From contig CAVSUE010000001.1 of assembly GCA_963731265.1 (NCBI GenBank), positions 64,001 to 128,000 on the forward strand: a DNA stretch of 64,000 nt. The letters run 5' to 3'. Below are positions 52,188 to 53,331 of the stretch, one piece after another. The position numbers and the translations under genes were made by a program. How positions within the stretch are numbered: the first letter of the stretch is position 1; every line of letters starts with the position of its first letter. Below the pieces are notes generated by a model. That model worked only from the letters and a program-made list of their open reading frames with translations. It did not search any database and had not been told where the DNA came from. Origin of the DNA: an uncultured Verrucomicrobiae bacterium (GTDB lineage Bacteria > Chlamydiota > Chlamydiia > Chlamydiales > Rhabdochlamydiaceae).

Positions 52188-53331
52188 TTTTTTCTCCTAG
52201 ACTGCGCCCAGCCCGTTTCCGCGAATTTTGACTGGCTGCGACTTTGCCCAATCGATCCTTCTCGTCAGCCGTTCCAATCTCTTCGGAGTTTGAACTCCGA
52301 GGAGACCTGCAACCATCCTTTAATGGTTGCAGCCCTATTCGGGAATTGTCTTCCTCGCTCGGCCGCTTCGTTTCGATTTGGCTTAGTCTCGCTGAGTCAA
52401 AATTTGCATAACTCGGCTGGGCGCAGTCTAAGACAAGAGACAGCAAAGCCATGCGGACATAAAGGCCGTTTTCCGACTGCTGAAAATAGTAGGCAAAAGG
52501 GGTTTTATCGATGCTGAGCTCGATTTCATTCACACGCGGCAATGGATGGAGGATTTTGAGATTTTTCTTCGCTTGTTTCAGCATGTCTTTCTTGAGGATG
52601 TACGTGTCTTTGCATTTTTCATAAATCGAGGCGTCGAGGCGCTCTTTTTGTAATCGCGTCATGTAAAGGATATCGACTTTGCCGAGGACTTCTTCCATGT
52701 TGCGATGGAACGAAAATTTGATTCCCTGTTTTTTGAGGAATCGGCTGATTTCATCCGGAAGCATCAGCTGTTCGGGGGATACAAAAAAAAGGCGCATGTC
52801 GAAATGGGTGCAAGCCACACTCAGCGAGTGGACCGTGCGTCCGAATTTTAGGTCCCCGACAAAAGCGAGGTTGAGCCCCTTGAGCTTCTTTTGACACTCC
52901 TTAATCGTGAAGAGATCGAGCAGAGTTTGTGTCGGATGTTGATTGGCCCCATCGCCGGCATTGATGACCGGTTTGGTCGTCGCTTCGCTCGCGGCGCGGG
53001 CTGCCCCCTCGCTCGGATGGCGCAACACAATCACGTCGGCATATGCGCCTATCACTTTCATGGAATCCTGGAGAGATTCCCCTTTTTTCGCCGAGCTCAA
53101 TCCCGCGTCGTCAAAGCCGATAACGCTACCGCCAAGGCGGATCATCGCCGCCTCAAAAGAAAGCCGTGTCCTGGTCGACGGTTCGTAAAAGCAGGAGGCT
53201 AAAATTTTATGCCTCAAGAGTTCGTTGGGTGCCTTTTTTTTCATCTCCTCTGCACGTTTTAAGATGAGAAGAATTTCATCCTTTGTCAAATCGGCGATCG
53301 AGAGGAGGCTGCGTTGGTGAAGTGGGTTCAT
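52180..53331 (-). CDS. pyrB: Aspartate carbamoyltransferase catalytic chain with 77-aa C-terminal insertion
   Basis: FYEPSTRTRLSF, HPTQTLLD, GDLKFGRTVHS, HPLPR. Confidence 0.95.
   Translation of the reverse strand: MNPLHQRSLLSIADLTKDEILLILKRAEEMKKKAPNELLRHKILASCFYEPSTRTRLSFEAAMIRLGGSVIGFDDAGLSSAKKGESLQDSMKVIGAYADVIVLRHPSEGAARAASEATTKPVINAGDGANQHPTQTLLDLFTIKECQKKLKGLNLAFVGDLKFGRTVHSLSVACTHFDMRLFFVSPEQLMLPDEISRFLKKQGIKFSFHRNMEEVLGKVDILYMTRLQKERLDASIYEKCKDTYILKKDMLKQAKKNLKILHPLPRVNEIELSIDKTPFAYYFQQSENGLYVRMALLSLVLDCAQPSYANFDSARLSQIETKRPSEEDNSRIGLQPLKDGCRSPRSSNSEEIGTADEKDRLGKVAASQNSRKRAGRSLGEKNG
52200..52428. mobile_element. Palindromic MITE inserted in frame in pyrB (TA duplication)
   Basis: TA|GACTGCGCCCAGCC...AATTTTGACT / AGTCAAAATT...GGCTGGGCGCAGTC|TA. 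229 + 2 = 231 nt. Confidence 0.9.

Follow-up and report, generated by a model that had tools for sequence, protein, structure and literature searches.

The aspartate carbamoyltransferase gene pyrB of a chlamydial genome (G000, 2.34 Mb) carries within it, in frame, a palindromic mobile element. We interpret it as a gene-less miniature inverted-repeat transposon (MITE). Its insertion, five codons ahead of the stop of pyrB, was into a TA, which was thereby duplicated. An IS630-type transposase likely moved it in trans, and the likely product of its translation is a disordered 77-residue tail, tolerated by the enzyme. We give this account as a whole a probability of roughly 0.8.

The element and its empty site

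The insert occupies positions 52198-52430 of the window (the whole 64,000-nucleotide stretch of DNA analysed) as TA + 229 bp + TA (Table 1), five codons ahead of the pyrB stop. From the flanking TA inwards, the two ends can pair at each of the first 16 positions (TA included), at 30 of the first 36 and at 44 of the first 58, which gives an imperfect stem of about 60 bp (75% over 64-nt arms). A preliminary description of this DNA had recorded terminal inverted repeats of about 35 bp flanked by TA on both sides; the repeats and the TAs stand, but the length was understated. Element plus one TA makes 231 nt, or 77 open codons, as that description held and as the open reading frame at 52180-53331 (- strand) bears out. 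The coding strand is predicted to fold as RNA at -119.3 kcal/mol (z -11.2; none of 200 shuffles was equally stable), in a single long stem with a branched tip. Rfam returned three weak matches far below the gathering score, none of them on the pyrB element, and no intron match. Terminal inverted repeats, a target-site duplication seen against an empty site, small size, dispersed multiple copies and the lack of a transposase together identify the pyrB element as a MITE.

Table 1. Features at the pyrB/pyrI junction (window coordinates)
Feature	Position	Strand	Detail
MITE, 229 bp, non-autonomous, palindromic	52200..52428		read on the - strand with one flanking TA, codes for 77 residues
TA target-site duplication, pyrI-side copy	52198..52199		single TA at the G003 empty site
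TA target-site duplication, pyrB-side copy	52429..52430		within the Leu301 codon (TTA) of pyrB
B-type terminal inverted repeat at the coding 3' end	52200..52233	+	30/36 complementary to the other end
B-type terminal inverted repeat at the coding 5' end	52395..52428	-	
Internal two-hairpin cassette	52278..52332		hairpins 52278-52305 and 52307-52332
pyrB, aspartate carbamoyltransferase catalytic chain, 383 aa	52180..53331	-	TIGR00670, 375 bits (cut-off 237)
PyrB layout			fold residues 2-302, insert 302-378, native tail GEKNG (from PDB matches and model)
pyrI, regulatory chain	51726..52187	-	TIGR00240, 163 bits (cut-off 149); start overlaps pyrB stop
Likely pyrI ribosome-binding site, AGGAG	52194..52198	-	abuts the element end; function predicted from sequence

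The preliminary description suggested that an alignment with relatives might expose an empty site, and it does. In G003, whose PyrB is 94% identical at the amino-acid level, one TA stands precisely at the insertion point, where G000 has two. The site is also empty in G002, and contigs from the public DNA runs X3 and X7 (about 93% alike) skip exactly 231 nt there (four runs were compared; X1 and X2 cover only scraps). A PyrB search of 41 genomes gave matches in 23, and all PyrB matches other than that of G000 end by query residue 310. The insert was found in none of the 13 other pyrB C-termini in which it was sought (six pyrB loci escaped the C-terminal motif, four of which were seen at normal length by other means). 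Close homologues with the same extension were not found, and among the relatives compared the insert is private to G000.

Recurrent insertion and spread

A search of the genome, proposed earlier as a check on copy number and on further in-frame insertions, yielded about 17 copies in G000: 14 complete (171-357 nt net) and three partial, all on C1. Six keep the frame of their gene, in pyrB, lpxK, priA, rnr, folC and nusB. Pfam places the rnr host in the RNB family and the folC host in the Mur-ligase family; from their motifs, we take three of the genes concerned to be folC, nusB and pyrH. G003 is empty at lpxK, nusB, rnr, pyrH and folC, as at pyrB, and copies in G002 occupy sites that are unbroken in G000. 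Insertion has thus been lineage-specific and recurrent.

The pyrB copy is a mosaic, and the nearest other copy matches it at 90.6% over 180 nt. Its ends are closest to those of an intergenic copy at C1:1469955 (28/35 at the coding 5' end, 29/35 at the coding 3' end), and its two-hairpin cassette is closest to, and near-identical with, those of the pyrH, priA and folC copies (66-68 of 70 by local score). In G000 the motif of the cassette's first hairpin recurs at 17 places, including elements with other ends. A metagenomic copy, L276, has other palindromes nested within it, which suggests a route by which element interiors grow; L279 and L287 retain the 35-bp termini around swapped interiors.

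BLASTN detected the element in 14 of 18 genomes of the genus and in none of 22 others. A profile of 22 insert peptides found matches in 49 of 400 genomes of the phylum, spanning 25 of 212 genera and eight families, a count that includes some single weak matches. TATAC ends were present at 10 of 11 loci inspected, five of them from another bacterial family. Against 1.84 billion protein representatives the peptide profile gave 207 matches (122 at 1e-10), and the hosts among the 66 peptide-bearing proteins scanned include DapB, IspD, RnpA, Pth, FtsW and PyrI. Among records that match the ends exactly, some titles read Rhabdochlamydiaceae, Ca. Rhabdochlamydia or Chlamydiae, and others Verrucomicrobiae, Acidobacteria or bacterium. 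The pyrB-type end pattern occurred in none of the metagenome contigs searched, and the general element-end pattern in none of the viral contigs. At E 1 the 22 insert peptides matched no NCBIfam family, and only three single weak Pfam models were recorded. For annotation this carries a warning: the 58-residue peptide common to about 200 protein clusters is a transposon footprint and not a domain.

One metagenomic PyrI (P0122) starts with the element peptide, an independent insertion at the pyrB/pyrI junction of another organism.

The mover

We lean towards an IS630-superfamily transposase, acting in trans, as the mover. The TA duplication and the terminal inverted repeats indicate IS630, for which RUP offers a precedent (PMC2229807, in part). 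An IS630 clade of 330-362 codons is present in 13 of 129 genomes of the family, and IS630 elements of this bacterial family have TA-TA(C/G) ends at 13 of the 19 loci examined. The genome richest in the element, G001 (82 end matches), holds 15 near-identical IS630 copies with TATACT ends. Moreover, about 26 bases at the end of the IS630 element L300 match a TATAC-ended sibling MITE family found in G000. The likeness of IS630 ends to the pyrB-element family itself covers TATAC(T) only, the first 5-6 bases.

No autonomous element bearing the family's own terminal repeat was found in G000, in 40 regions of G001, or in 93 genome-collection and 19 metagenome matches, and no IS630 with that repeat turned up among the IS630 matches of the 129 family genomes. 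The 330-362-codon clade was not found in G000; DDE_3 had no match in G005 (22 element matches) or G012; and no transposase was seen among the peptide-bearing proteins in the 66 scanned of 150 listed. Several candidate partners were set aside. The IS630 copies of G000 itself have CTAG-type ends (2 of 5 matches with ends resolved), and an IS4-like element of 1470 bp has TATAC only inside longer ends. L221, considered as a TATAC-ended IS630, is really an IS630 gene broken by two copies of a sibling MITE, and 19 lone element ends in G001, considered as the ends of long elements, are truncated copies.

The same passenger could instead be moved by an HUH enzyme (IS200/IS605 TnpA, REP-associated) or by some other non-IS630 enzyme that recognises the hairpin and not the terminal repeats. 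We consider this unlikely. The whole element does fold as one long hairpin, G000 has two Y1_Tnp genes (no inverted-repeat pair was found around either), and an IS630 with matching terminal repeats was not found. However, IS200/IS605 elements insert without target duplication, whereas the single TA of the empty pyrB site becomes two, which also sets the element apart from the HUH-moved REP/REPIN and PATE elements. Furthermore, the 35-bp termini of L279 and L287 are kept while the interiors are swapped, as would be expected of terminal inverted repeats, and the TA-TAC ends are those of the local IS630 elements.

One G000 IS630 copy is inserted into a family copy at C1:718455, and in L105, L127 and L235 the insertion point of an IS630 copy is precisely the terminal TA of a family copy. 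Sibling TA-TAC-ended MITE families are scattered across G000, with about 15 copies of one and several of a shorter one whose end matches L300 (examples at C1:490134, 642863, 793170 and 1203453). At L221:1340-2288, one of the two sibling-MITE copies in the IS630 gene is read in frame. Two identical IS4-like elements, at G000:C1:935273-936742 and 1689200-1690669, have an intact 470-codon open reading frame.

A dominant reading frame

We assembled 81 distinct complete copies, including 9 of the 14 in G000, in a sample that favours intact ends. TA stands at both ends of 59 copies, with no wider target consensus, and 55 have triplet length. A copy was counted as in frame when it lay within an open reading frame of at least 150 codons; the nusB copy (+1) was left out because it was assigned to the overlapping next gene. 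By this measure 28 of the 81 are in frame, 27 in orientation + and phase 1 and one in -2. The frames open among the 55 triplet-length copies are +1 in 47, -2 in 35 and -1 in 27, with mean hydropathies of -0.88, +0.12 and -0.22, respectively, and phase 2 is the commonest TA phase in G000 genes. The expected share of +1 is 0.35, and 27/28 were observed (binomial 7e-12). Of the 18 copies flanked on both sides by 20 or more codons, 17 use frame +1 (2e-7), as do all 15 that offer another open frame (6e-8). These probabilities are to be read in the knowledge that copies derived from one master within a genome lack full independence.

The remaining copies comprise 37 without a long open reading frame, 9 near 5' ends, 5 on stop codons and 2 that break a reading frame. 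In the five on stop codons, 5-8 residues are appended until the element end supplies a stop, and all five face the other way. In G001, 170-nt B and C masters are intergenic, and 168/225-nt A masters enter genes. A codon-position test within groups of same-length copies does not discriminate, with pN/pS of 0.71 for 12 in-frame copies and 0.44 for 12 other copies.

We think it probable that insertion can take place at almost any TA, and that later selection keeps those copies that have triplet length and are open in the hydrophilic frame, at termini and linkers; an RNA-level orientation effect could contribute. That the bias stems wholly from RNA, through termination or destabilisation of mRNA by the opposite orientation, or from a fixed direction of integration relative to transcription, and not from the peptide, seems improbable to us. 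The opposite strand of the pyrB copy is C/U-rich (69 C and 70 T of 233), all five stop-codon copies lie in the other orientation, and ERIC shows orientation-dependent mRNA decay (PMC2229807, in part). Nevertheless, not only the orientation but also the phase is fixed: +2 is open in three of the strict set of 18 copies and never used, and L061 is in frame in the opposite orientation.

PyrB and its predicted tail

Scripted removal of the 231 nt gives a PyrB of 306 aa that ends in RMALLSLVLGEKNG before the stop, and PyrB of G003 naturally ends in RMALLSLILGEKNG. The earlier claim that deletion restores a normal C-terminus was therefore correct, as was the claim that the pyrB/pyrI overlap is left intact: its 8 nt (52180-52187) are unaffected by the insert. 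The AGGAG before pyrI is identical in filled and empty alleles.

Solved aspartate carbamoyltransferase (ATCase) chains in the PDB match PyrB residues 2-302, so that the 77 inserted residues would follow the last helix and precede the native GEKNG. The STRT, HPTQ and HPLP columns, to which we ascribe a catalytic role, are invariant in 16 sequences. A model built from 16 sequences is confident for the fold (204 residues with pLDDT of at least 90), and residues 306-383 score below 50, a value that is partly built in because that part has no aligned relatives. The tail is thus predicted to be disordered.

Between G000 and G003 the PyrB body has dN 0.029 and dS 0.324; with G002 as outgroup, four private changes fall to G000, all conservative, and seven to G003. 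By comparison with the pyrH copy, the insert has pN 0.161 and pS 0.167. These values indicate purifying selection on the body and neutral drift in the insert. NCBIfam contains a natural PyrB-PyrI fusion family (NF009916), which suggests that the C-terminus of PyrB tolerates additions. The insert is likely translated as a PyrB tail. The peptide earlier put forward for proteomics, DCAQPSYANFDSAR, is not tryptic; the tryptic junction peptide derived from the sequence is MALLSLVLDCAQPSYANFDSAR. The preliminary description spoke of new protein sequence in a core enzyme, and this holds only in the sense that a tail, drifting neutrally, is predicted outside the fold; its translation we infer. The tail is very probably a neutral passenger with no new function, and its consequence for the enzyme is most likely none.

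Domestication of the tail or the hairpin, for a new PyrB function or for control of pyrI expression or pyrimidine regulation, is very unlikely. It would suit the position of the element where pyrB meets pyrI, right beside the ribosome site of pyrI, the hairpin-sharing element ahead of carA in the same window and the metagenomic PyrI that begins with the same peptide. Yet the insert is private to G000, its pN equals its pS, the same peptide recurs in dozens of unrelated proteins, and no Rfam family came near threshold. Moreover, the pyrI site is predicted to be paired in filled and empty alleles alike, and folding shows no clear difference between them.

Probable donated start signals

The copy in pyrH (G000:C1:50958-51190; L202:1459-1691), which falls beyond the window, lies seven codons into the gene in phase 2 and brings a TGA into the pyrH frame. 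Relatives start pyrH at a GTG about seven codons upstream of the insertion site, which is empty in G003 and in 11 other relatives compared. The right arm of the element contains AGGAGG, 7 nt and then TTG in frame. G000 has one pyrH match, and the gene is normally essential; a start donated by the element is therefore likely. The layout in L085 is the same. An ATG completed by the terminal TA, and preceded 6-8 nt upstream by GGAG, is present in L155, L166, L198 and folC. Translation from a start further downstream may bypass some N-terminal in-frame copies, such as that in folC.

Intron-like removal of the element from mRNA, leaving PyrB at normal length, is hardly credible. A very stable stem joins the element ends and the frame of pyrH meets a stop within its copy, as such removal would allow, but spliced elements need neither triplet length nor one open frame. 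Translation predicts the length and frame rule and splicing does not, there was no Rfam intron match, and the in-frame AGGAGG-7 nt-TTG start is a simpler rescue for pyrH.

More tentatively, the element itself might be adapted to land in genes, as a self-neutralising transposon that works without splicing; we regard this as possible, and rather doubtful. If it were true, successful masters would have triplet length and be open in a hydrophilic, disorder-prone frame for phase 1 landings, and for phase 0 landings, those on stop codons (five copies), their termini would hold a stop 6-9 codons inwards. For phase 2 landings near starts, the right arm would supply a ribosome site with TTG or GTG (pyrH, L085), or else a GGAG before the ATG that the terminal TA completes (L155, L166, L198). 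Nearly every TA in a compact genome would then be a site where such an element could persist, and it could pass from one chlamydial family to another.

The filled allele in sequence archives

The filled pyrB site was found in no public sequencing run; none held half of its sequence words, and no RNA run was listed. The G000 allele thus rests on one assembly. A repeat copy misplaced into pyrB during assembly is nonetheless extremely unlikely even though the filled allele appears in no second data set, because the copy is unique (best other 90.6% over 180 nt), the TA duplication is exact and the frame is kept, and comparison with G003 reveals this pattern at five further genes of G000.

Relation to known palindromic elements

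The preliminary description called this a chlamydial family resembling the Rickettsia palindromic elements (RPEs). The resemblance is sound, in that the family is mobile, palindromic, in frame and multi-copy, but it is an analogue and not a member of the RPEs: the RPE1-3 models (TIGR01045, TIGR03774 and TIGR03775) had no match in G000 at E 0.1, in a search run without a Rickettsia positive control. Like the RPE-1, -2 and -3 elements of Rickettsia and WPE of Wolbachia, these are gene-less palindromes of an intracellular lineage that lie both between genes and in frame in unrelated conserved genes. As with RPEs, the peptide is conserved and the sites are exposed; the RPE in Gmk is near neutral (PMC2229807, PMC10969869 and PMC3767692, each in part). 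The chlamydial family differs in having no sequence match to RPEs, a host in the Chlamydiota, and longer, modular elements (91-357 nt net, against 105-146 for RPEs). It also has a clear TA duplication and empty sites in sister genomes, whereas RPE-1, -2 and -3 sit at the same sites across orthologues (PMC3767692, in part) and their target-site duplication is entered as '?' in Table 1 of PMC2229807 (in part).

By description, the elements also resemble RUP (IS630-Spn1), ERIC/RU-1 and the 107-bp Correia element, with terminal inverted repeats, terminal TA, target duplication and a stable stem-loop. In-frame fusions are made by ERIC and Correia-107 too, and RUP, an intergenic element, is closed by stops in each of its six frames (PMC2229807, in part). 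By contrast with RUP, 28 of the 81 chlamydial copies sampled keep a gene's frame, and nearly all of these are read in a single one. The IS630 insertion sequences of the family share the TA-TA(C/G) ends and TA target, but the element has no transposase.

It is well supported that the element is an independent chlamydial version of a known phenomenon, apparently undescribed, in which the strict frame rule, the youth and the candidate movers are new. A literature search, with subscription journals mostly outside it, returned no paper on such elements in Chlamydiota, and 'chlamyd' occurs 0 times in the portions consulted of PMC10969869 and PMC3184786. RPEs are old and fixed, which is why their movement and in-frame outcome stayed open. 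The chlamydial family is young: its empty sites are exact, and near-identical copies occur across many genes. Its 170-nt intergenic sub-families exist alongside coding ones of triplet length, and there are candidate IS630 transposases to try. What moves it, how frames are filtered and what it costs the enzyme could thus be tested directly in a laboratory strain, and the family should make a useful model for RPEs.

Other repeats and genes

Several further repeats lie in the window and elsewhere in the genome. Ahead of carA, a 217-bp palindrome (61257-61473) with other ends contains the first hairpin motif of the pyrB cassette; its relatives are at C1:681105, 1377462 and 1739119 and C2:248045. 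At G000:C1:455590-455640 a small CTAG/TAG-ended palindrome is nested in a family copy, with similar pieces at C1:1106293 and 1542830. A 172-bp palindrome with 81-nt arms (13139-13310) belongs to another repeat family. Positions 31590-31690 and 48461-48561 hold 98% identical copies of a high-copy palindromic repeat, one of them over the pyrF start, whose core 16-mers occur about 60 times on both strands. More intergenic inverted repeats, between pyr genes and elsewhere, are found at 48581-48691, 49279-49424 and 25898-25966. A tandem 231-nt duplication at 6242-6703 encodes a Gln/Met-rich repeat of 77 residues and is unrelated to the element despite its equal length. Adjoining pyrB, 53560-55689 encodes a 709-aa protein that has no NCBIfam match and, from its pattern, presumably begins with an F-box-like segment followed by WD40-like repeats.
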